From: a virus
Taxonomy: Duplodnaviria > Caudoviricetes
Virus record (IMG/VR): IMGVR_UViG_3300036793_000172
Location: 26,808 to 90,807 of that record
Reading direction: 5' to 3' (one strand)
DNA length: 64,000 nt
Every line of letters starts with the position of its first letter. The first letter of the stretch is position 1. Shown here piece after piece: positions 16,445-29,541 of the stretch. A model generated the notes under the pieces. The model had not been told where the DNA came from. It saw only the letters and a program-made list of their open reading frames with translations, and searched no databases. Both the position numbers and the translations under genes were made by a program.

Positions 16445-19084
16445 TCACTTCTTCTTGGCGAACGGGTTGCTCTTGACAGGCTTCTTCTTGTCGTCGCCCG
16501 CGTCGTCGTCGGTGTCCTTGTCCGGATCCGAGTCGTCGTCCCCGTCGTCATCCGGGTCGGCGAGATCGCGCGGGTCGACCGGGCCCGGGTCGTCCTTGCC
16601 TGGAGGCGCCTGCTCCTCGTCGTCGGGGACGCCGTCACCGTCCTGGTCCTCGTCGCCCTCCGGCGGGGCTCCCTGCTCGCCGTAGGCGCCTTCCGCGTCC
16701 TGAGCGGGCACCAGGACGCCCTTGCCGCACGCCGGGCACACATCACCCTCGGCGGCCTCTCCGCCGCCCTCCATGCCCTCCTGCTGGGTCATGGGGTCGC
16801 TCGACGCCATCGGGTCGGAACCGGCCTGCGGGTCATCGGTGTCGACGGTGGTCGGCTCGGCCCCGCCGAACTCGGTTCCGCAGTTGTCGCACACCAGGTC
16901 CGGCTGCACGTCCATGCCCGGGTCGTTCGGGTCCGGGACGATCGAGTCGTCGTAGTCCTGCTGCTGCTGGCGCAGGTCGATCTGCTTGGCCTTGTCCAGG
17001 TCGGGGTCCTGGAACATCTTCGGTGGCGCGACGAACCCGCACACGGGGCAGGCGTTGCCGTCCCAGGCGTCGTCTTCGCCGCAGACGGGGCAGTTCTCCT
17101 CGCGGAGGGTGTCCACGTCGGCGGGCGCCTTCGTCTCGCCGTAGGCCGTGTGACGGCTCGCCTGGTACCCGGTGCCCGGCTGCCGGTAGTTCATCTCCGG
17201 GAGCTTCTGCTTGCGGAAGTCTTCCCACTTCTGCTCGGAGTTGCTGCGCGACTTCTCGCGGCCGACGTTGAGCTGGTAGTTGGTGCCCTTGCTCTCGGTC
17301 TTCTCCCGCTCGCTCTTCTGGTTCAGCCGCTGCTGCGCCAGCCATGTGACCGCCTGCACCTGGTGCCCCGCGATCGGCTGGCCCTCCTTCTCGGAGATCT
17401 GGCGCGCGGCCTCGTGGTAGTGACTCACCACGTGGTCGTAGTTGCGGCGGTTGAGGGATCCGTCCTTGCGCTTGGTACCGGCCAGCGGTGCCTTCGAGTA
17501 GTCCTCGTCCGACATGCGGTGCCCAGCGGCCACTGACAAGGCGTGCCGGTCGACGACCACGTGCGGCACCGTCGGATCCTTGTCGCCGCCGTGCTCGATC
17601 AGGTGCGCGAAGTCGCGGATCTTGGGTCCAGAGAGCACGTCGTTGTAGTTCGCGCCCTTCAAGACCTTGTCGGCGTTGTTCTTCTGACTCTCCGAGGCGA
17701 GGATGCCGCCGCCCTTGCCGCCGATGCCCTTATGCCCGTCCAGGACTCGCGCGGCGTTGTGCATGTTGGCGACCCACGGCGTCTGCGGCGAGTAGATCGC
17801 GAGCATCCCGGCAGCAAGGTGGTTGTCTCCGTGCGGGTGCCGGAGGTCGTGCGGCTCCTGGGGCTCGGGCTCAGAGAATTCCTTGCCAGCAGACAAAGCC
17901 TTTGACTTGCGCGTCTCGTGCGCTGCGAGCTGGCGGTGGTAGTCGGCGCTCTCGTCGAGCTTCTCCGGACGCACCGGGGCGAGCTTGGAGATGCTCTTCG
18001 CGATGTTGTGCGCGTCCTTGTACCAGGTCTTGCCGGATGCCTTCTCGTCGTCGGTCGCCTGGTTCCACATCTTCACGATGTTGTCGTGGTGCACCGGGTG
18101 CGCCTGGAACCACGGGTGGTCTTCCACCTTGTCGTACTTCGCGGCCTCGGCCTGGAGCGCGGCTTCACGGTGCGCCTCGTGCCAGGTGTGGCCGCAGCCG
18201 AAGCACTCGGCGTTGCCCCGGGTATCGGCGATGGTGTCCTTGCACCGGCAGGCGAGGCACTGCGACGCCTGCACGAACTTCAGCGATGCCCAGCGCGATT
18301 CCGGCGACGGAGCCGGGAGACGGCGCGGCGGCTCGGGAGTAGTCCATTGCGGACCCGGGTCGATCTGGCGTGCAGCTGTCCGGCGGGTCGAAGTCATCGC
18401 GAGATGGTCAAGGCCGGGACCCAGCTCCGGCTTGCCCAGGAAGTACGCGGTCGGATCAGCCGGGGGCTCGACCAAGAGCGAGTTCTCGAAGAACCTCAGC
18501 CCGTAGCAGGTCTCCCGGATCAGGGTGCCGACCTTTCGACCGGAACCCGTTACCCTGTAATGGGTTTTGCCCTTCATTCCGGGCACGTGCGCGCAGTACT
18601 CCAGCGGCGTGGTGGCCTTGCGGTTGCACACCGAGCAGATCGAGTAGGCCACGTCCACGCCCATCGACGTGCGCTCGATATGTCCGAGGATGATCGCCTT
18701 CGCCAGCTTCGGGTATTTGAGCCCGTCGACCTCCATGAGGCCCTCGACCCACGTGTCCGGCGTGCCGTCGGGGTTGCGGTCCTCGTGCAGGGCCGCGTCG
18801 ATGATGAGCCCGCGCATGCGCCGGTGGTCGTCGTTGTGGTGGTTGACGAACACGGGCTTGCCGATGAAGGTGCGATAGCCCTTTGCGATCTCCTCGGCCG
18901 GGAACTCGTCGAAGTTGTCATTGCAACGGGAGCTGATCATCCGCGAGCGGACGTACAGCATCCCGTGCTTCGGGGTGTAGCTGAACTCATGCCGATGGGC
19001 GACGCGGGCGTTGGCCGGAAGCTCCACGCCGGACCCGTCACTCCAGTTGGCGCTCAGGATCTCCGCCGTGGCGAACTTCAGCAC
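16445..19084 (-). CDS. Capsid maturation protease fused to HhH-GPD-like domain and Zn-ribbons
   Basis: N-terminal protease (FIGKPVFVNHHN, TSMG..VAYSICSVC, FFENSLLVEPPADP); central GPK...VVVDRH...QAVTW domain; acidic C-terminus. Confidence 0.85.
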   Translation of the reverse strand: MLKFATAEILSANWSDGSGVELPANARVAHRHEFSYTPKHGMLYVRSRMISSRCNDNFDEFPAEEIAKGYRTFIGKPVFVNHHNDDHRRMRGLIIDAALHEDRNPDGTPDTWVEGLMEVDGLKYPKLAKAIILGHIERTSMGVDVAYSICSVCNRKATTPLEYCAHVPGMKGKTHYRVTGSGRKVGTLIRETCYGLRFFENSLLVEPPADPTAYFLGKPELGPGLDHLAMTSTRRTAARQIDPGPQWTTPEPPRRLPAPSPESRWASLKFVQASQCLACRCKDTIADTRGNAECFGCGHTWHEAHREAALQAEAAKYDKVEDHPWFQAHPVHHDNIVKMWNQATDDEKASGKTWYKDAHNIAKSISKLAPVRPEKLDESADYHRQLAAHETRKSKALSAGKEFSEPEPQEPHDLRHPHGDNHLAAGMLAIYSPQTPWVANMHNAARVLDGHKGIGGKGGGILASESQKNNADKVLKGANYNDVLSGPKIRDFAHLIEHGGDKDPTVPHVVVDRHALSVAAGHRMSDEDYSKAPLAGTKRKDGSLNRRNYDHVVSHYHEAARQISEKEGQPIAGHQVQAVTWLAQQRLNQKSEREKTESKGTNYQLNVGREKSRSNSEQKWEDFRKQKLPEMNYRQPGTGYQASRHTAYGETKAPADVDTLREENCPVCGEDDAWDGNACPVCGFVAPPKMFQDPDLDKAKQIDLRQQQQDYDDSIVPDPNDPGMDVQPDLVCDNCGTEFGGAEPTTVDTDDPQAGSDPMASSDPMTQQEGMEGGGEAAEGDVCPACGKGVLVPAQDAEGAYGEQGAPPEGDEDQDGDGVPDDEEQAPPGKDDPGPVDPRDLADPDDDGDDDSDPDKDTDDDAGDDKKKPVKSNPFAKKK

Positions 19085-21571: not shown

Positions 21572-24500
21572 TTACATAAACAGTTCTTCAGGGTCCTCGG
21601 AATCCATTCCAAGGGCCTTACTGAGGGCTTCGTAGTGGGTGCCCTCGATCTTGAGATCGCCGAAGTTGCGGGCTCGGGCGCCGTCGCGGGCACCCTCGTT
21701 GATCAGGTCCTGCTGCTCGGCGAAGTCGAAGTCACGCAGGGCGGACTTCTGCAAACCCTTGTCCTGTGCCAAGTAGGCCCGCGCCGAGGCGGTGAAGTCG
21801 AAGCTCACGTCGTTCCCTTCCTGCTTCGCCGGGGTGGCCCCGGTCATGATCCCTTGCGCGGCGGCCGTGGCCTGGAAGCTGGCCACGATGTCGCCGACCG
21901 AGCCGGTGAACTGGTTCGGTGTGGCCGAGCCCTCGTCGGCGTCGATCGAGGAGGCGGTCTCCGGCGGCTGGTACTGCGCGATCGGGTTGTCCGGCACCGG
22001 GTCCTCGGCGCCACCGTCCGTGGACGGCAGTGCGGGCTCCGGCTCCTCGTGCAAGGTCCCGTAGTAGCCCATGGAGTCGTAGGAGTCCGACGAGAGCAGG
22101 TTGGTCGGCACCTCGTCCTCGTTGTTCCAGCTCTTCGGGTCCTCGCTGGTGGCGAAGCCGGTCGAGCCGGGGTTCTGCGAGTTCGAGTGCAGGGGCGCGG
22201 CGTAGGGGAAACCGGGCTGGTCGTCCTCGCCCTGCAACGGCGACCACGAGTCGTGCGCGGCCGTCTTCTGCTCACCCGCCTTGGCGATCTCGTTCCACGG
22301 CGCCGACTTCATTTCCTTACGGAGCGCAGGGTTTTTCTTCGCGTGGTCGATGTCCCACCACGCGGCCTGCTCGTGGCAGTCGCCCTTGGGGTCGTCCGGG
22401 TTGGGGATGACCCTGCCATCCTTCATGGACAAGTCCTTTTCGGACGGGATAACCACCACGTGGCCTTGGTACACACCGTTCGGGGAAGTCCAGGTGTGGT
22501 GGACCACGCCGCCCTCGGGGAACTTCTGGCCGACCTCCTCTTCCCACTCGCGGACGGCCGCGTGCAGGCTCGTGGTGTCGCCCTCCTCGTGGTGACCGCC
22601 GGGCAGCTCCCACGTGCCGCGCGCCGGGTCCTTCTCGTCGTCGAGCCCGCGCTGGAGCATGAGGATGCGGCCCGTGTCGGCGGCCTTCAGTGCGACGCCG
22701 GAGACGGTGGGGCCGTCCTTCTTGGCCGCGAGCACCGGGCCCAGCTCGTCAACGTCCACCAGACCCATCTCGTCATCGAGGCCTCCGGTGTGCAACGAAC
22801 TGGTGTCGGAGATGCCGCCGGACATCATCGGGCCCATGTCCGGGTTCTGATCCGAGACCGGGTCGGCCGTGTGCCCTTGACCGTCCTCGGCGACCTGTCC
22901 CGTGCCGCCGCAGTGGCCGCAGCCCCAACCGGCGCACTGCGGGCAGTTGGTAAGCGGCAGCCCGATCCAGGAGGGGATGCCGTAGCCGAAGTCGGGCGCG
23001 TGCCGCCGGGTGTCGTTGGTCTTGTGGTGCTTGCGCCGTTCGTCGTCGATGACCGAGCCGATGAAGCCGATGGCGTGGCCACAGTGCGAGCACTTGTGCT
23101 TCTCGATGGCCTCTTCGGTCAGCGTGCCGCCGCAGTACGGGCACTTGCGGCGGTGCTCTTCGTCCTCTTCCTCGGCGACCATCTGCAAAGCGGCCGAGTG
23201 CGTGAGCCCGTACGCCATAAGGATCTTCATGACATCGGCGGGATCGTCGTCGTTGTCGAGCATCGCGCTCGCGATCGTCGACAAGGGACTGTCGGAGATG
23301 CCGGGCACCTCGTCCGGCTCGTGCGCCTCGCCGAAGACGAGAGCCCCGAGCTTGATCTCCCGGCCGAACATGCCCCGGCTCTGCGCCTCGTACATCAGCG
23401 CGAGCGAGTGCGAGCACTGGCGGCCGTGGAACCGCAGCCGGTCCCAGGCCCAGTCGCCCCACTTGCAGTCGCACGACCAGTCAGCGATCTTGAAGGTGCC
23501 GGGCCGGTAGGTGATGTAGTTCTGGTACGCGCCGTGGTCGCCCTGGACCTCACCGGCCAGCCCCTCGGTGGTGGCGACCTTGATGTTCACCTTGCCCTCG
23601 CGGCGGATGCGCTTGGCCTTGTTGCGCACGTCCGTCCAGCTCGCGACGACCTGGAACCGGAACTCCTCGTCCTTGCGGGCGGTGCGCAGCATCAGGGCCG
23701 CTGCCTCAGGTGCGATCTGAGGCCTTTGCGACCGTCCCCGACGTGCGTAGTCGTCCATTGCCTTCTGACGACGCTCCTGGCGCTCCTCGGGTGTCTCCTG
23801 GGGCTTCTGCTGCTTCGGGGCACGCGGAGGGGACGGGTACGGGCAGTACCTGTCCGTGCAGTACTTGGTCTTGACGCCGTCCGGATGGTCGGTGGTCTCC
23901 AGGTGCTCCCTGATCTGGCTCTTGAGGAACTGCCGGTTCTCCTCGTGCTGGCGGGCCAGCTCCTCATCGGACACCGCATCGGCGTGACCGGAGCCGCCGC
24001 AGGCCTCACACGTTTCCCGGCGCATCCGGTAGGCGTCCGGGTCCTCCTCCGGGTGAACGCCCGGCTTCTCCTGGTAGTCCGGGTTCTCTTCTTCAATGTC
24101 GTAGTGGCCGTTGCCCTCGCACTCCGGGCACGGACCGGCGGGGATCGCGCTCTCGTGCCGCAGCGACGCGCGGTAGAAGGTGCTCTCCGCCAGGTTCCGT
24201 TGCAGCTGCGTCGGCCGGTAGAGGTCCTTCTTGTCGGCGTTGTCCGGGTGGTCGAGGTCGAGCTTCGGGTCGCCCGGGTCCTGGTAGCTGTTCCACCACT
24301 TCTGCCCGGCTGGCGACCGGCCGCCGTGGTCGAACATGTGGGTCGGGTGCTGACGCCGCAGCTCGTCCTGCATGGCGCTGCCGTAGCCCTTGCCCCGGCT
24401 CTCCTCGTCATAGACCTTCATGTCGTGGATGGCCAGGGCCGGGTGGGCTGGGTCGCCGGGCTTGGTCTTGGAGTAGTAGATCGTCCCCGCGACTCCGGAC

Positions 24501-26167
24501 CCGTGATTGGGCCCCTGATGCGGACCGTTGTGGATCTTGAAGAGGTGGTGCGACCAGCCCGGGTGAGTCTCTTCGCCTTCCTCGTGCCAGGGGTCGGCAC
24601 GGCCCTCCCAGACCGGGTGGTCGTTGCCGGGTCCCACGGCGTTGTAAGTGGTGAAGTCGACCCCCGTGGGCGGCTCGGGGTGATTGCGCGACGGCATGGC
24701 GAGCTTCGAGCTGAGTTGACCGTCCATTTTGGATCCCTTGGCGCTCATCAAGGCTTGTGGACCCGGCTCGGAGATCGGGCACACCTGCTGCTCCCACCGG
24801 GTTGTCCATGGGCACGCACCACGGTTCTGAGGGACAGCCAACAGCGTGTTGTTGCGGTCGTTCGGGAAGGTGCACTGCGCCATGCGGCGCCACGTGCACC
24901 AGTCGGGTCCATCGCTTGCTGCCGTCCGGCTGGTACCCGCGTCCCGGGACATCTCGGTCAGCGTGCACACGCCGTCGTCGTGGTGGCGGATCGCGTGATC
25001 GCGGTCGTGGTCCGGGAAGTCGCAATCGGTCGCCATCCCATACCGGGCGCCGTGCTTCTGCAACGTGCCGTGCACGTCGTAACCGGTGTCCTCGTCGTAG
25101 TGCGGGAAACCGTGCTTGTCCGCATCGTAGACGAGCGCCTGCACGGGTTCCTTACGCAGCAACGCGGACGCGGTGCGGTGGTGGCCTTCGACGGCGAAGA
25201 GGTTGTTCTCGTGCTTGACGAACATCGGGTGGTGCGTGCCGGGGTAGCTCTGCCCGACCTCGGTGACGCCGTGCTCTTTCACGTGCTGCACATCATCGCC
25301 GGGGTTCTGCACGTACCTGTTCACATGCTTGTCCACCACGTACGGCTGGGTCGCGTACACGTGGTGCTTGGACAAGTCGACATTCCGGACTTCGCCCCTG
25401 TCGCGCCAATCCTGGTAATCGTTCTCGTTGTGGTTGGACAGCATGTGGTAGAGGCCCTCGTGATGAGCGACCGGCTTGATGTCGTTTTCCTTATCCTGCT
25501 TGGCTTTCTCGTACGCCTCGCCGTGGCGCTCGTGGTATCCCGAGGGGTAGTCGTCGTAGTCCTCGTAATGCCCGCGCTCGTACGTGTTCGGATCCGGTGC
25601 CGTGTCGTCCCACAGGTTCTCGTCGAAGCCGCCCTCGGGATGGCGACTGCCGTACAGGGCCCGGTCCTCTTCCTTGTGAAACTCGTGCTGACCCTCGTAG
25701 CCCTCGACGTAACCGGCGAAGCCAGCGTGCTTCACCGGCGTCAGCGTGTGCAGACGGCTGAAGTGCTGCTCGCCGGTGCGGTGGTCGTGGCCGAACCGGG
25801 TCAGCAGCGCGTGCGTCTCCGGGTCGGTGAGCTTCGAGATGCGGTCGTTGTTCGGCCGGGCAAGCGGGTCGTACACGGTCGCACCCGCGCCGCCGACGCC
25901 GCCGGAGCGGGGGTCGGCGTCCGGCTTCGGGTGGTTCGAGGGGTCGCCGATCAGCTCCGGCGTCCACTGTGCGCCGTCGTGCGCGGACATGGTGCCGCCG
26001 CACGCGGTGCACGTTGCCTGCCGGACCTTGCCGTTATCGGTCAGGTCGGTGAAGTCGTTCGCTCCGCAGTAGGAGCACGACGCGGGCTGCTCCTTGTTCG
26101 GCAGGACGGCCTCGGCTGGACCCGTGTTGTCCTGCTCCAACGCGAACTTGCGGAAGTTGAAGCCCAT
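21572..26167 (-). CDS. Polyvalent head-region protein (ParB-like, GNAT, Zn fingers, SWIM, NUDIX)
   Basis: VEGHHR (about 25180), RGKGYG (about 24390), CDCKW...CSHSL (about 23410-23475), GGHHEEGD...AAVREWEEEVG (about 22530-22605). Confidence 0.85.
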   Translation of the reverse strand: MGFNFRKFALEQDNTGPAEAVLPNKEQPASCSYCGANDFTDLTDNGKVRQATCTACGGTMSAHDGAQWTPELIGDPSNHPKPDADPRSGGVGGAGATVYDPLARPNNDRISKLTDPETHALLTRFGHDHRTGEQHFSRLHTLTPVKHAGFAGYVEGYEGQHEFHKEEDRALYGSRHPEGGFDENLWDDTAPDPNTYERGHYEDYDDYPSGYHERHGEAYEKAKQDKENDIKPVAHHEGLYHMLSNHNENDYQDWRDRGEVRNVDLSKHHVYATQPYVVDKHVNRYVQNPGDDVQHVKEHGVTEVGQSYPGTHHPMFVKHENNLFAVEGHHRTASALLRKEPVQALVYDADKHGFPHYDEDTGYDVHGTLQKHGARYGMATDCDFPDHDRDHAIRHHDDGVCTLTEMSRDAGTSRTAASDGPDWCTWRRMAQCTFPNDRNNTLLAVPQNRGACPWTTRWEQQVCPISEPGPQALMSAKGSKMDGQLSSKLAMPSRNHPEPPTGVDFTTYNAVGPGNDHPVWEGRADPWHEEGEETHPGWSHHLFKIHNGPHQGPNHGSGVAGTIYYSKTKPGDPAHPALAIHDMKVYDEESRGKGYGSAMQDELRRQHPTHMFDHGGRSPAGQKWWNSYQDPGDPKLDLDHPDNADKKDLYRPTQLQRNLAESTFYRASLRHESAIPAGPCPECEGNGHYDIEEENPDYQEKPGVHPEEDPDAYRMRRETCEACGGSGHADAVSDEELARQHEENRQFLKSQIREHLETTDHPDGVKTKYCTDRYCPYPSPPRAPKQQKPQETPEERQERRQKAMDDYARRGRSQRPQIAPEAAALMLRTARKDEEFRFQVVASWTDVRNKAKRIRREGKVNIKVATTEGLAGEVQGDHGAYQNYITYRPGTFKIADWSCDCKWGDWAWDRLRFHGRQCSHSLALMYEAQSRGMFGREIKLGALVFGEAHEPDEVPGISDSPLSTIASAMLDNDDDPADVMKILMAYGLTHSAALQMVAEEEDEEHRRKCPYCGGTLTEEAIEKHKCSHCGHAIGFIGSVIDDERRKHHKTNDTRRHAPDFGYGIPSWIGLPLTNCPQCAGWGCGHCGGTGQVAEDGQGHTADPVSDQNPDMGPMMSGGISDTSSLHTGGLDDEMGLVDVDELGPVLAAKKDGPTVSGVALKAADTGRILMLQRGLDDEKDPARGTWELPGGHHEEGDTTSLHAAVREWEEEVGQKFPEGGVVHHTWTSPNGVYQGHVVVIPSEKDLSMKDGRVIPNPDDPKGDCHEQAAWWDIDHAKKNPALRKEMKSAPWNEIAKAGEQKTAAHDSWSPLQGEDDQPGFPYAAPLHSNSQNPGSTGFATSEDPKSWNNEDEVPTNLLSSDSYDSMGYYGTLHEEPEPALPSTDGGAEDPVPDNPIAQYQPPETASSIDADEGSATPNQFTGSVGDIVASFQATAAAQGIMTGATPAKQEGNDVSFDFTASARAYLAQDKGLQKSALRDFDFAEQQDLINEGARDGARARNFGDLKIEGTHYEALSKALGMDSEDPEELFM

Positions 26168-26168
26168 C

Positions 26169-27086
26169 TCAGAAGGCCTTCTCGGGGAACCGGTGTGTTG
26201 CTAGACTACACACATGATCAACCTTGCCAAGGTCGGCAGCCGTGGCCCCCGGAAGTCGATCGAGGACCGCTTCTGGAGCAAGGTGACTCGCGCAGGTGAG
26301 ACAGATTGCTGGCTGTGGACCGGTGCGACTACCCGCCTCGGATACGGCAATTTTTGGGATGGCACCTACACCGCCCGAGGTCGCCCACGCATGGTCGAGG
26401 CTCACCGCTGGGCCTACTCCCACTTCGTGGTTCCGCCCGGCGAGATGCACGTGCGACACGCCTGCGACGTTCGTGCCTGCGTGAACTTCACGGCACACCT
26501 GCTGCTGGGGACGATCGGAGATAACATTCGCGATCGCGAGGAGCGAGGACGCGGGGTAATCCCTGACAACCGAGGCTTTGCCCGAGGCAAGGGCGCGAAG
26601 CTCACTGCGGATCAAGTCCGCGCCATCCGCGCCGCCAGCACCGGCGCTTGGGGTGAGCAAGGCCGATTGGCGACGGAGTTCGGAGTTTCCCGCCAGATGA
26701 TCGGAAGCATCCTCAGCGGGCGACGCTGGGTTGAGTGATGCCCGGACCTGACGAGCAGGATCGGGACGATCGAACAACACGGTTCCGAGTTCTTCATAGT
26801 CGTCCGACGCGAGATGATGCTCGCTCGCGGTCGTCTGCGCGGCCGTACTCAGCTGGGACGCGACGTAGGAGCCGCCGCCCATGCCGTCGTCGAGCACGAC
26901 CTGGTACTCCTCGGCCCCGGGCCACGGTCCGTCGAACACCGCCTCGACGGTGCCGAGGATGCCGTCAACGGTCATCACCCGCTGCGTCGGCTTGAAGTCC
27001 CAGTAGTCTTCCGAACTCACTCCACCGGTCTTCTGCACGCCGAGAGTGTCGTGGGCGATCCGGGTGTGCCGACCGCTGAAGTTCAT
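26169..27086 (-). CDS. SH3/KOW-like head-region protein whose frame stays open through the antisense HNH gene
   Basis: ATG after GAGGAGG; QRVMTVDGILGTVEAV...YQVVLDDG; stop 1 nt before ATG of the polyvalent gene. Confidence 0.7.
   Translation of the reverse strand: MNFSGRHTRIAHDTLGVQKTGGVSSEDYWDFKPTQRVMTVDGILGTVEAVFDGPWPGAEEYQVVLDDGMGGGSYVASQLSTAAQTTASEHHLASDDYEELGTVLFDRPDPARQVRASLNPASPAEDASDHLAGNSELRRQSALLTPSAGAGGADGADLIRSELRALASGKASVVRDYPASSLLAIANVISDRPQQQVCREVHAGTNVAGVSHVHLAGRNHEVGVGPAVSLDHAWATSGGVGAIPKIAVSEAGSRTGPQPAICLTCASHLAPEAVLDRLPGATAADLGKVDHVCSLATHRFPEKAF
26199..26216 (+). promoter_or_regulatory. Leaderless promoter of the HNH gene
   Basis: TG-C-TAGACT extended -10, 6 nt before ATG; no SD; GTGTGT/ACACAC inverted repeat flanks the -10. 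Confidence 0.6.
26214..26738 (+). CDS. HNH homing endonuclease with C-terminal HTH
   Basis: RFWSKV...CWLWTGA...GYG...AHRWAY...VRHACDVRACVN...HLLLGT..DN. Confidence 0.9.
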   Translation: MINLAKVGSRGPRKSIEDRFWSKVTRAGETDCWLWTGATTRLGYGNFWDGTYTARGRPRMVEAHRWAYSHFVVPPGEMHVRHACDVRACVNFTAHLLLGTIGDNIRDREERGRGVIPDNRGFARGKGAKLTADQVRAIRAASTGAWGEQGRLATEFGVSRQMIGSILSGRRWVE

Positions 27087-27124
27087 GGCTGCCTCCTCGC
27101 TTCTTAGATCGGCATTTCCGGGTC

Positions 27125-27361
27125 TCAGGCAGGCCCTGCGCAACCTTTCTCGTCCTCGACGGCATCCACTACCGCCTGGGCGAGATCGATCGTGAACTGG
27201 ACCGGCTTGCCCAGCAGCGAGCGGGAGGTCACGCAGACCTCGATGCCCGCGCGGAGGATGTCCCGCACGGGTCCGCGCAGTGTGGCCGGTTCGATCACGT
27301 CGAGGTGCGCCAGGGCCGCCGACATCAGCGACGAGGCGCTGCGTGGGGAGTGCTCGTTCAT
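27125..27361 (-). CDS. Hypothetical protein
   Basis: 78 aa, ATGA overlap with the portal stop. Confidence 0.65.
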   Translation of the reverse strand: MNEHSPRSASSLMSAALAHLDVIEPATLRGPVRDILRAGIEVCVTSRSLLGKPVQFTIDLAQAVVDAVEDEKGCAGPA

Positions 27362-29541
27362 GCGGTCTCCTCGTCCCATTCGGCCTTCCACTGCTCGTCG
27401 CGGGGCACGTGGACGTGACGGCGCATCCCGGCGTGCTTCGGACCGCCGAAGCGGCCGGTCGGCCGGTAGTCCTCCGGTCGCTTCTCCTCCGAGTTGTCCG
27501 GCGGCGTGAAGTGCTCGGCCGTCGCCTCACGGATCTGGCCGTAGGCGTAGCGGAAACCGGCGGTCTTGCGGGAGGCCGGTTTCGGCATGGTGGCGCGCTG
27601 CTCGTCGGACTCGGCCGGTCGCTGATCGCCGGGGTTCTGCCCTTGCGGCGGAGGCATGAGGATCACCTGTCCTTGTCCGGTCGCCTGGTCGGTCGGGGTA
27701 CCACCCTCGGTGTCCTGGTCGGTGTTGGCCAGGTCGTCCGGTGTCGGCGCGAGCGCGGGGTTGTCCGGCGGCACGGCACCGAGGGCCGGGATGGCCGCGT
27801 CCTGCCCGGCCATCTCCTCGCTCTGCGGCTTCATCGCCTTCGGCTGGAAGTCCTGCTTCAGGTCGTCCGGGATCGGCAGGTTCTGGTCCCGCAGCGCCAG
27901 GTAGGTCTCGCGGCGGGTCTCCTGCTCGGCGATCGCCAGCGCCACCTGCTCGGCCTTGCGGACTTCGAGCATGTCGTCGAAGTCGATGCCGGTGTTCTCC
28001 AGCCGGTTGTGGTACGGGACCGGCACGCCGCTCATGTTGAGCGATTCGAGGAACTGGCGCTCCATCTGCTCGTCGGCGAGGTTCATGGTGGCGAACTTCA
28101 GCTCCGGCACGAGTAGCTTCGGCTGCTCCACGATGCGCTGCTCGCCGGTCTCCTCGTCGACCTCCAGGACCTCTTCCATCTTCACGTATCGCTTGCCGCC
28201 GCGCTCCTCGTAGTCCCAGTGCTCCTGGGCCTCGGCCACAATGGACGCCCGGTCCTGGAAGAAGTCGGAGATCTGGCGCTGGTAGTGGGTCAGCAGTTGC
28301 GTGACGATGTCGCGGTTCAGGGCGTCGGCCGCGTACGTCTCGCCCTGGTCGGCTCCCTGGAGGACGGTGCGGGAAAGACCGAACACCTGGAGGATGCGGT
28401 CCTCGATGCGCTCGAAGTCGGCCGTCAGGTCGGGCATGTTCTCCCGCCCGAACACGGGCGCCATGTCGGTGGCGAAGTGCGAGGTGAGCACCCGGAAGTC
28501 ACCGGCCAGGGCCGCGTCCATCGACTCCTCGAAGTCCAGCAGATCGTCGGGCGTGGGGATCCACGGCGAGTCGGTGCCGAGATCACTTGCCGATGCGCCA
28601 AGCTTTACGAGGATCAGTGGCGTGTAGAGCCGGTCGGCGATCGCGTCGAGTGCCGAGTTGAGCATCTCCTCCTGAAGGATCGCGCGGAAGCCGCGCATCA
28701 GGATCGGCAGACCGCGCTTGTGGAACGTGTCGCCCTTGAACTTGATCTGCTTCAGCAGCATGTTCGAGACCGGCATGAGGGCGTCCTCGCCCGCGTACGC
28801 GGTCAGCTCGGGGTAGTTCTGGACGAGCGCGTTGTACTCCCACACCGGCTGGCGGTCCTGGAGGACCTTGCGCAGCGTCTCGGGCAGGCGGATGAGGAAG
28901 CGCGGGTCCTTGAGGAACGGCGACTTCTCCACGTTCACGTCGTCGGGGTTGAGCAGTTCGTCGTCTTCCCAGACGCCAAGGGTTTCGTTGAACGAGCCGA
29001 GCGGCCACGCCTCGCCGGTGATCCAGTACTCACGGCCGACGTCGATCAGGTAGTTGCGGTAGTCGAGCTGATCGAAGAACAGGTCCTCGTAGAAGCCCTT
29101 GATCTGGTCGTCCTTGCAGTCGACCTCGATGCCCTGCAAGGGGAACTTCGTGAAGATGTCGATGCACGCCGCGACGATCGGGTGCGTCAGGTACAGCAGG
29201 CGGCAGAACTGCCTGATCTTCCTGAGTTCGTCCTCTTTGGTCACGTCGAACGGCAGGTTGTTCTGCCGCCAGTAGAACATCGGGTCGCGAGGGCGGCCGG
29301 TCGCGAACGACACGTTGGCCGTCTGCGTCCCGGTCGCACCCGAGCCTGCCGCCGTGCGGCGCATCCCGAGGCGCTGCTTGCGCATGCGCGTCATGACCTC
29401 GGCGCTGTTGTCCTTCGCCGCGTTGCCGATGTTCGGCAAGGACACGCCGGTCTTCGGCATCCTCCTCGCCTCGGACACCGACTGGTTCAGGATCAGTCCA
29501 CCGGCGCGACGCCTGCGGTCGTTGACCTCGAAATCCGCCAC
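27358..29541 (-). CDS. Portal protein
   Basis: 727 aa; HPIVAACIDIFTKFP, EAWPLG, RGLPILMR, RILQVFGL; upstream of the protease/scaffold/MCP block. Confidence 0.85.
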   Translation of the reverse strand: MADFEVNDRRRRAGGLILNQSVSEARRMPKTGVSLPNIGNAAKDNSAEVMTRMRKQRLGMRRTAAGSGATGTQTANVSFATGRPRDPMFYWRQNNLPFDVTKEDELRKIRQFCRLLYLTHPIVAACIDIFTKFPLQGIEVDCKDDQIKGFYEDLFFDQLDYRNYLIDVGREYWITGEAWPLGSFNETLGVWEDDELLNPDDVNVEKSPFLKDPRFLIRLPETLRKVLQDRQPVWEYNALVQNYPELTAYAGEDALMPVSNMLLKQIKFKGDTFHKRGLPILMRGFRAILQEEMLNSALDAIADRLYTPLILVKLGASASDLGTDSPWIPTPDDLLDFEESMDAALAGDFRVLTSHFATDMAPVFGRENMPDLTADFERIEDRILQVFGLSRTVLQGADQGETYAADALNRDIVTQLLTHYQRQISDFFQDRASIVAEAQEHWDYEERGGKRYVKMEEVLEVDEETGEQRIVEQPKLLVPELKFATMNLADEQMERQFLESLNMSGVPVPYHNRLENTGIDFDDMLEVRKAEQVALAIAEQETRRETYLALRDQNLPIPDDLKQDFQPKAMKPQSEEMAGQDAAIPALGAVPPDNPALAPTPDDLANTDQDTEGGTPTDQATGQGQVILMPPPQGQNPGDQRPAESDEQRATMPKPASRKTAGFRYAYGQIREATAEHFTPPDNSEEKRPEDYRPTGRFGGPKHAGMRRHVHVPRDEQWKAEWDEETA

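Follow-up and report, generated by a model that had tools for sequence, protein, structure and literature searches.

A single gene in the window, by which we mean the whole 64,000-nucleotide stretch analysed here (the final 64 kb of a virus record of 90,807 bp in IMG/VR, IMGVR_UViG_3300036793_000172, whose source is a large uncultured phage of actinobacteria), encodes a 1,531-residue protein, P0001, that carries a ParB/sulfiredoxin (Srx)-like module, a GNAT acetyltransferase, a Nudix hydrolase and several zinc-binding modules in one chain. We propose, with a probability of roughly 0.6, that P0001 is a polyvalent cargo protein of the phage's head module, loaded into the capsid for delivery to the next host. 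Packaging and injection are supported by the position of the gene between portal and prohead protease, by the fusion of closely related Nudix domains to head proteins in other phages, and by orthologues that occupy the same slot in the genomes of Bixzunavirus phages. The first-pass annotation had suggested that the protein is delivered together with the genome; this context speaks for such delivery. Packaging itself, injection, effects early in infection on nucleotides, RNA caps or proteins of the host, and a role against host defences are inferences.

Position in the head module

On the minus strand, the genes around P0001 are, in order, a 628-residue protein, the portal, a small gene that we call up117, P0001 (separated from up117 by an HNH endonuclease gene in antisense), a 139-residue gene, a prohead protease fusion, a 296-residue protein and a 329-residue protein that is probably the major capsid protein and is 77-88% identical across most relatives. 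The features on which the argument depends are as follows, with the GC content of third codon positions given as GC3.

21572..26167, minus strand: the whole 1,531-residue gene P0001, stop included; open frame, GC3 0.89, more than 170 homologues
27358..29541, minus strand: portal gene (PHROG 2833, E 1.5e-146)
16445..19084, minus strand: 879-residue prohead protease fusion (PHROG 18299, head maturation protease, E 2e-20)

In the last of these, a DUF7178 domain (PF23802, E 1e-29) follows the protease domain. A search of IMG/VR for related loci returned nothing with the single protein as query and returned loci with an alignment as query; all 16 of the 16 loci with full-length relatives keep the gene order in their visible flanks; in 9 of them the portal is seen upstream, and in 12 the protease fusion is seen downstream. 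The arrangement extends to cultured phages: in the mycobacteriophage Tonenili, the slot between portal and capsid genes holds a 1,267-residue 'LysM-like' protein (gp250), which aligns with P0001 over the SWIM domain (40% identity, E 1e-18) and over the C-terminal tail (40%, E 3e-12). The slot of Tonenili that is homologous to that of the 879-residue protease fusion is taken by a 1,236-residue protein with a Phage_L5_gp82 domain.

The Nudix domain of P0001 leads to the head module by a separate route. Its counterpart in gp3 of the Arthrobacter phage Sonali, a portal-Nudix-MuF protein, is 47% identical and has flanking motifs in common with it, and an alignment-based scan of IMG/VR returned 64 more loci that have the Nudix part only, nearly all of them within open reading frames (ORFs) of 650-1900 residues. 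Ten of these Nudix relatives were sampled, of which eight are fused to Phage_portal (three of the eight also to MuF) and two to a prohead serine protease, so that, with Sonali included, all 11 relatives of this Nudix clade examined outside the P0001 family are covalent fusions with portal, MuF or prohead protease. Fusions of such Nudix domains with MuF, portal and capsid protease have been described (PMC9503650), and the match between these fusions and the published pattern of head-packaged Nudix proteins favours the packaging reading.

Reading frame and domain architecture

The P0001 frame runs through 1,531 codons without interruption and is a real gene. Its GC content at codon positions 1, 2 and 3 (0.65, 0.45 and 0.89) matches that of the other minus-strand genes in a window of 65% GC. 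A ribosome-binding site (GAGAAGG) lies 5' of the ATG, and the start codon is right, because the closest relatives begin with MGFNFR as well; at the other end the gene terminates in TAA TAG, and the ATG of the next gene follows 9 bases further on. A plus-strand ORF of 1,554 residues over much the same bases (21635-26299) was rejected as a shadow of this gene from the composition of its translation, which is rich in V, R, L and G. The whole protein has a net charge of -99, and its tail is acidic and rich in Pro and Ser.

Motif positions in P0001, together with profile and structure searches carried out domain by domain, recovered all the domains named by the first-pass annotation, in the order that it gave. 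Nine modules can be delimited; the counts refer to the 119 relatives onto which P0001 was mapped.

25856..26107, minus strand: module 1, residues 21-104; N-terminal zinc ribbon, C31xxC34...C53xxC56; conserved frame, 94 of 119 relatives
24938..25840, minus strand: module 2, residues 110-410 with a core at 252-358; ParB/Srx-like enzyme module, from model fold and motifs
24722..24937, minus strand: module 3, residues 411-482; four-cysteine module (C424, C432, C452, C464), 59 of 119 relatives
24188..24715, minus strand: module 4, residues 485-660; GNAT acetyltransferase with acetyl-CoA motif R591-x-x-G594-x-G596, from the model and Pfam matches of relatives
23768..24178, minus strand: module 5, residues 664-800; two DnaJ-type CxxCxGxG motifs (C680, C720) and a basic helical linker, 18 of 119 relatives
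23348..23710, minus strand: module 6, residues 820-940; SWIM-type zinc finger, C899xC901...C918xH920; core of the frame, 118 of 119 relatives
22778..23290, minus strand: module 7, residues 960-1130; helical linker and zinc ribbons (C1009xxC...C1026xxC; C1075xxCxGxG-C1083xxCxGxG), 35 of 119 relatives
22268..22750, minus strand: module 8, residues 1140-1300; Nudix hydrolase, its catalytic residues R1206, E1207, E1210 and E1211 intact, from Pfam PF00293 and the invariant box
21575..22270, minus strand: module 9, residues 1300-1531; acidic region of low complexity, then a conserved tail of about 100 residues at the C-terminus; 114 of 119 relatives

No other ORF of the window has a module in common with P0001, as seen in an internal paralogue search, and PADLOC gave only a generic Nudix match. 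The catalytic residues were also examined for degeneracy, and the catalytic or cofactor motifs proved to be conserved in all three enzyme domains; with REx2EE of the Nudix box, G594 of the GNAT module and G-x-H-R of the ParB-like module invariant, the enzymes look active as far as their sequences tell.

The Nudix and GNAT modules

PF00293 covers residues 1163-1281 of the Nudix module (E 1.6e-13, 51.3 bits against a cut-off of 21.1), which PHROG 1198 and NCBIfam match as well. Its box lies at residues 1191-1214 and reads G1191...R1206-E-W-E-E-E-V-G1213; G1191, R1206, E1207, E1210, E1211 and G1213 are invariant across the 41 relatives in the alignment that we used for residue invariance of zinc, SWIM and Nudix positions. 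With a profile score above the cut-off and the catalytic REWEEE kept, the Nudix assignment of the first-pass annotation is borne out. The solved structures nearest to this domain by sequence are of the BdRppH, MutT, NudB and NudG types, that is, pyrophosphohydrolases of nucleoside triphosphates (NTPs) or of RNA 5' ends; none of them is an ADP-ribose pyrophosphatase or a signal-specific enzyme.

In the GNAT module, the motifs IHDMKV (at 580), RGKGYG (at 591) and SPAGQKWW (at 618) lie within a segment, residues 483-665, that AlphaFold2 (AF2) models with a predicted local distance difference test score (pLDDT) of 82. Foldseek matched this model to at least 500 PDB chains, and all the matches listed are GNAT-fold acetyltransferases or GNAT-containing complexes (best E 1.5e-3, probability 0.69-1.0), with RimI and Hpa2 near the top among the matches listed. 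Relatives provide the link to Pfam: residues 488-660 are 53% identical to a segment of P0005 that passes PF00583 (25.9 bits, cut-off 20.7), and their identity to a segment of P0014 is 44%; P0014 scores 44.8 bits with PF00583 in total over two stretches, one of them in the homologous segment; residues 578-628 match the second GNAT of P0014. Fold, RGKGYG motif, in which G594 of RxxGxG is invariant, and homologous segments above the Pfam cut-off all agree on a GNAT acetyltransferase.

The ParB/sulfiredoxin-like module

The ParB-like motifs are YATQ at 271, EGHHR at 327 and YDADKHG at 347, and the strand-hairpin-helix of PMFV...EGHHRTASALL has the classical ParB layout. An AF2 model of residues 105-405 (pLDDT 83, predicted template modelling score, pTM, 0.82) matched, by Foldseek against the PDB, members of the ParB/Srx fold exclusively, namely sulfiredoxin, ParB, SerK, SbnI, Noc, KorB and PadC (E 0.013-1.5, probability up to 0.93). 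Among viral models in BFVD, most of the named matches are ParB/Sulfiredoxin phage proteins, with a best E of 4.7e-4 and probabilities of 0.97-1.0 for the top eight, and a VIA alignment superposed 81 residues within model residues 148-254 (Z 4.1, root mean square deviation 4.5), with unrelated helical matches intermixed. Searches by sequence gave no such picture: neither residues 105-405 nor a profile built from 27 ParB-like homologues found anything meaningful among PDB sequences (the profile found no PDB sequence at all), one free-standing homologue reached ParBc_2 at a sub-threshold E of 0.011, and Protein Atlas offered no more than leads for residues 245-405, among them a viral cluster in which 26% of the members have ParB_N (score 0.89). 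The ParB-like claim of the first-pass annotation thus holds at the level of the fold and by the invariant GHHR, and sequence profiles do not back it; taken together, the case for a ParB/Srx fold is of moderate strength.

An exhaustive search found free-standing homologues of this module, 116-350 residues long, and G328, H330 and R331 are invariant with these homologues included. Their existence makes the ParB-like module a phage gene family of its own, by sequence a distinct and so far unannotated one with free-standing members. Four of ten free-standing homologues (P0248, P0262, P0267 and P0272) show a sub-threshold match to PF23719, 'Antitoxin VapB-like', over GHHR (E 0.002-0.075), and Protein Atlas listed an actinobacterial VapB cluster as well; a literature query on these matches found nothing relevant.

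Zinc modules, SWIM domain and C-terminal tail

C899, C901, C918 and H920 of the SWIM finger are invariant in the 41 relatives, and the region matches PHROG 2940 (E 8e-32). Its score with PF04434 straddles the cut-off of 19.6 bits, at 16.4 bits with hmmscan on the whole protein and 21.8 bits in a six-frame genome search, in which the control was also positive in 14 of 14 genomes; at E<=0.05, just 2 of the 41 relatives have a Pfam match. The SWIM domain that had been read from the sequence is therefore upheld by its invariant CxC...CxH, with a Pfam score that stays borderline. SWIM domains are, in general, nucleic-acid- or protein-binding modules.

Among the other zinc modules, the DnaJ-type motifs are matched by the DnaJ_CXXCXGXG profile in two relatives. 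The four-cysteine module, whose position in the chain often differs among relatives, has no match to a PDB sequence or to Pfam, and Pfam HiPIP matches neither P0001 nor the 41 relatives. Residues 1300-1531 match nothing in the family collections, Protein Atlas or the PDB, and the conserved end of this region is, by its sequence conservation, a candidate loading signal. A predicted complex between the portal and the C-terminal tail (alignment residues 625-731) scored 0.00, which gives no answer, neither for nor against.

A conserved frame with exchangeable cargo

One search returned 171 relatives of 845-2680 residues, most of them on contigs of up to about 150 kb and all but one with a Nudix domain; in total the family comprises more than 170 metagenomic clusters (90% identity), and its SWIM core is shared by 230 records of cultured actinophages. 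Among the 119 mapped relatives, the modules fall into two kinds. Those of the frame are fixed (N-terminal zinc ribbon in 94, SWIM in 118, Nudix in 118 and the C-terminal region in 114), and those of the cargo come and go (ParB-like module in 36, four-cysteine module in 59, GNAT in 19, DnaJ-type zinc motifs in 18 and further zinc ribbons in 35). The cargo modules do not follow one order in all relatives, a variation on which the first-pass annotation was silent; five relatives have two ParB-like copies, and others add an Arr-type ADP-ribosyltransferase, extra GNATs, ParBc or inteins.

Two further observations concern insertions. In P0003, P0004, P0006 and P0007, which are the closest relatives, about 280 residues (within residues 1-290) are inserted between the MGFNFR start and the zinc ribbon, in which GNAT-like (PGAGSA) and ADP-ribosyltransferase (ART)-like (HRGF...) motifs can be seen by eye. 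Inteins or LAGLIDADG elements (PF14890, PF14528, PF05203) interrupt the polyvalent protein in P0048 and P0069 and the portal in P0164, P0201, P0203 and P0221.

The upstream domain gene and the antisense HNH gene

Between portal and P0001 lie two smaller genes.

26739..27086, minus strand: up117, about 116 residues; in 50 of 119 relatives fused to the polyvalent protein as its N-terminal domain
26214..26738, plus strand: antisense HNH endonuclease gene between up117 and the 1,531-residue gene, with a typical HNH sequence

By BLAST, 50 of the 119 relatives carry a homologue of up117 at residues 1-112, fused to the zinc ribbon; the junction ...RPDPGK|MTF... of the fused proteins corresponds to ...RPDPARQVRA / MGFNFR... 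in the window. Here and in the closest relatives up117 is a separate gene and the main protein begins at the corresponding Met, and the domain always lies between the portal and the polyvalent gene. The first-pass annotation did not mention up117 as part of the protein. Compared with PDB sequences, the domain gave nothing meaningful. Its fusion in 50 relatives implies that the up117 product and the 1,531-residue protein most likely act together.

The HNH gene reaches Pfam HNH_3 with an E of 0.0012, below the cut-off, and at the junction of up117 and P0001 such a gene was found in 0 of 16 full-length relatives. In one relative (L010:16451-16975), a 35%-identical HNH gene sits in antisense between the two halves of the protease-fusion gene; such cassettes appear to be directed to the junctions between domains in head genes. 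The up117 frame (26169-27086) has no stop of its own and runs on for about 190 codons antisense to the HNH gene, up to a TGA one base before the ATG region of the 1,531-residue gene; the part antisense to HNH has a GC3 of 0.64, which is non-coding-like, against 0.81 in the up117 domain, and its openness may be due to chance, open antisense frames being common at 65% GC. Between the portal stop and the up117 start, about 270 bases (27087-27357) contain no convincing gene, which is unusual in this otherwise tightly packed operon.

Proposed packaging model and alternative roles

On the reading that we favour, P0001 would be a late product, synthesised alongside the portal and the prohead protease; it would be taken into the procapsid and enter the next host cell with the DNA. 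A frame made of the up117 domain, the N-terminal zinc ribbon, the SWIM domain and the C-terminal tail would carry the cargo and would probably provide loading and perhaps contacts with the DNA end or the portal; it would take the genomic slot that MuF has in other phages, without kinship to MuF. The cassettes placed on this frame would be a ParB/Srx-like NTP-binding or nuclease module, a RimI-like GNAT and a MutT/RppH-like Nudix pyrophosphohydrolase, enzymes of which free-standing phage versions exist too.

Several points weigh against this proposal. A literature search for virion proteomics of the orthologues in E3, Myrna and Bixzunavirus found none. The loading role suggested for the SWIM domain and the tail is drawn from their conservation only, and the activities that the first-pass annotation proposed (nucleotide-signal hydrolysis, protein acetylation and nucleic-acid processing) are conjectural. 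P0001 itself has no Pfam match to ParB (PF02195 and related) and none to GNAT at E<=1, and its Nudix box departs from the canonical GX5EX7REUXEEXGU in having an invariant Asp1197 for the first Glu and a spacer of 8 instead of 7, to which a Gln at the last position of the box adds a further deviation. Finally, the record is about 59% complete by estimate, for a virus of about 150 kb, and genes elsewhere in the genome could alter the picture.

The same cargo might also travel in pieces. The prohead protease would then cut the polyprotein at [R/K/H]-T-A linkers, and the capsid would hold small enzymes and not one 170-kDa protein, an arrangement that we consider possible at odds clearly below even. 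P0001 contains five such tripeptides, with 1.2 expected (P = 0.007), and four of the five coincide with borders between modules (residues 414, 828, 1099 and 1301); the motif is found as well after the protease domain of the 879-residue protein (residue 235) and after the N-terminal domain of the 628-residue protein (residue 265). Over the whole family it occurs 534 times where 154 are expected, compared with 0.6-1.1 times expectation for seven control tripeptides, and DdrB of P1 offers a precedent in being processed prior to incorporation into the head (PMC5512222). Yet some of the surplus across the family lies in conserved motifs within the C-terminal tail and the ParB-like active site, which are not linkers, the extended context around the tripeptide is weak, and the motifs at module borders are only partly conserved in the alignment. 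Counted over six proteins of the head module (16445-36859), [R/K/H]-T-A is seen 15 times against about 3.7 expected; from its sequence distribution it may be a maturation cleavage motif of head-module proteins.

Two other roles would not involve ejection. As a structural protein or an assembly factor of the head, P0001 would use its frame in procapsid or portal assembly or in the handling of DNA ends within the capsid, and its enzymes would act in the producing cell late in the infection. A position in the head module suits assembly factors equally well, the SWIM domain as a binder of nucleic acid or protein fits such a role, and the Bixzunavirus orthologue carries only LysM and no Pfam-recognisable enzyme domain; but cargo is swapped freely among close relatives while their capsid genes stay 77-88% identical, which is the pattern of a conflict effector and not of an assembly part, and a peptidoglycan-binding LysM, like a Nudix domain fused to portal or MuF, makes most sense on entry (PMC9503650). 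We therefore hold an assembly role to be unlikely. Still less probable, to our minds, is a late cytoplasmic multi-enzyme that never associates with the particle and whose gene merely lies in the late operon: nothing in our data shows a physical association with the capsid, but the tight coupling to portal and protease genes is conserved across divergent lineages, the portal-adjacent upstream domain is fused to the protein in 50 relatives, and the Nudix clade is covalently joined to head proteins.

Returning to the proposal of a packaged and injected cargo protein, it can be extended, tentatively and with less confidence than the proposal itself, to the family as a whole, which might constitute a MuF-independent head-loading frame of Bixzunavirus-like actinophages, with cassettes (ParB/Srx-like, GNAT, ART, Nudix, LysM) shuffled in and out and perhaps freed by the protease at [R/K/H]-T-A. 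If true, this would be a natural plug-and-play system for protein delivery into mycobacteria and their relatives. Head-packaged effectors are predicted to be widespread, yet to our knowledge they have hardly been tested beyond P1, T4 and a few MuF toxins. The orthologues in cultivable phages of Mycobacterium smegmatis make the loading frame genetically testable; identifying the part that loads the cargo would account for the way in which enzymes reach actinobacterial hosts from these phages and would open a way to test the Nudix, GNAT and ParB-like modules against host defences.

Comparison with known systems

Polyvalent proteins have been defined as polypeptides of phages or conjugative elements that combine 2 to 15 unrelated effector-type domains, are encoded beside virion genes in phages, and, as part of the definition, are packaged into the virion and delivered into the recipient cell (PMC5512222). 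With Nudix, GNAT, ParB/Srx-like and zinc modules in one ORF beside virion genes, P0001 matches the descriptive side of this definition, in agreement with the label that the first-pass annotation gave it; packaging and delivery have the support of context. The likeness extends to the ParB/Srx-type domain, the RimI-like GNAT, the position by virion genes and the modular gain, loss and reordering of domains; the difference lies in the hub domains of the published set (MPTase, ArdC-N, MuF, SNF2, methylase), which are not detectable by Pfam in P0001, and in the frame of zinc ribbon, SWIM, Nudix and tail, given that the same work mentions SWIM once, in another context, and Nudix once (PMC5512222). 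The annotation had also pointed to P1 DarB, a methylase-helicase. This parallel is sound as a theme and does not extend to domain content: P0001 and DarB have no domain in common, no N6A methylase or SF2 helicase was matched in P0001 by Pfam, NCBIfam or PHROG, and MuF and the other known polyvalent hub domains are lacking too. Nor was its ParB-like module placed in the DdrB-like ParB family.

Closer in some respects are Sonali gp3 and the protease-Nudix fusions (PMC9503650), which have a Nudix domain of the same clade, a head-module context and an inferred packaging and injection. In contrast to these, the Nudix of P0001 is not fused to portal, MuF or protease, and belongs to a separate protein downstream of the portal that has its own frame and extra enzymes. 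MuF/SPP1 gp7 (PF04233) resembles P0001 in being encoded directly downstream of the portal and in carrying variable enzymatic domains, a likeness of position and function only. Homology of the frame to MuF was ruled out, since P0001 does not match the MuF profile of Pfam at E<=1 and its comparison by hhalign with the MuF alignment gave a probability of 0.3; a Pfam MuF domain was likewise found neither in the record, nor in four relatives that are 94-100% complete, nor in Tonenili.

The 'LysM-like' proteins of Bixzunavirus (cluster C), such as Tonenili gp250 and Myrna gp96, occupy the same genome slot as P0001 and differ in their cargo, which is LysM, with no Nudix, GNAT, ParB-like module or N-terminal zinc ribbon detected. 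Head-packed enzymes that are co-injected with the DNA have an established precedent in DarB and DdrB of P1 and in Alt and the internal proteins of T4 (PMC5512222, PMC9503650). Beyond this known principle, the frame, its presence in Bixzunavirus with other cargo, the upstream domain that is split off in some members and fused in others, and the free-standing ParB/Srx-like family appear to be previously undescribed.

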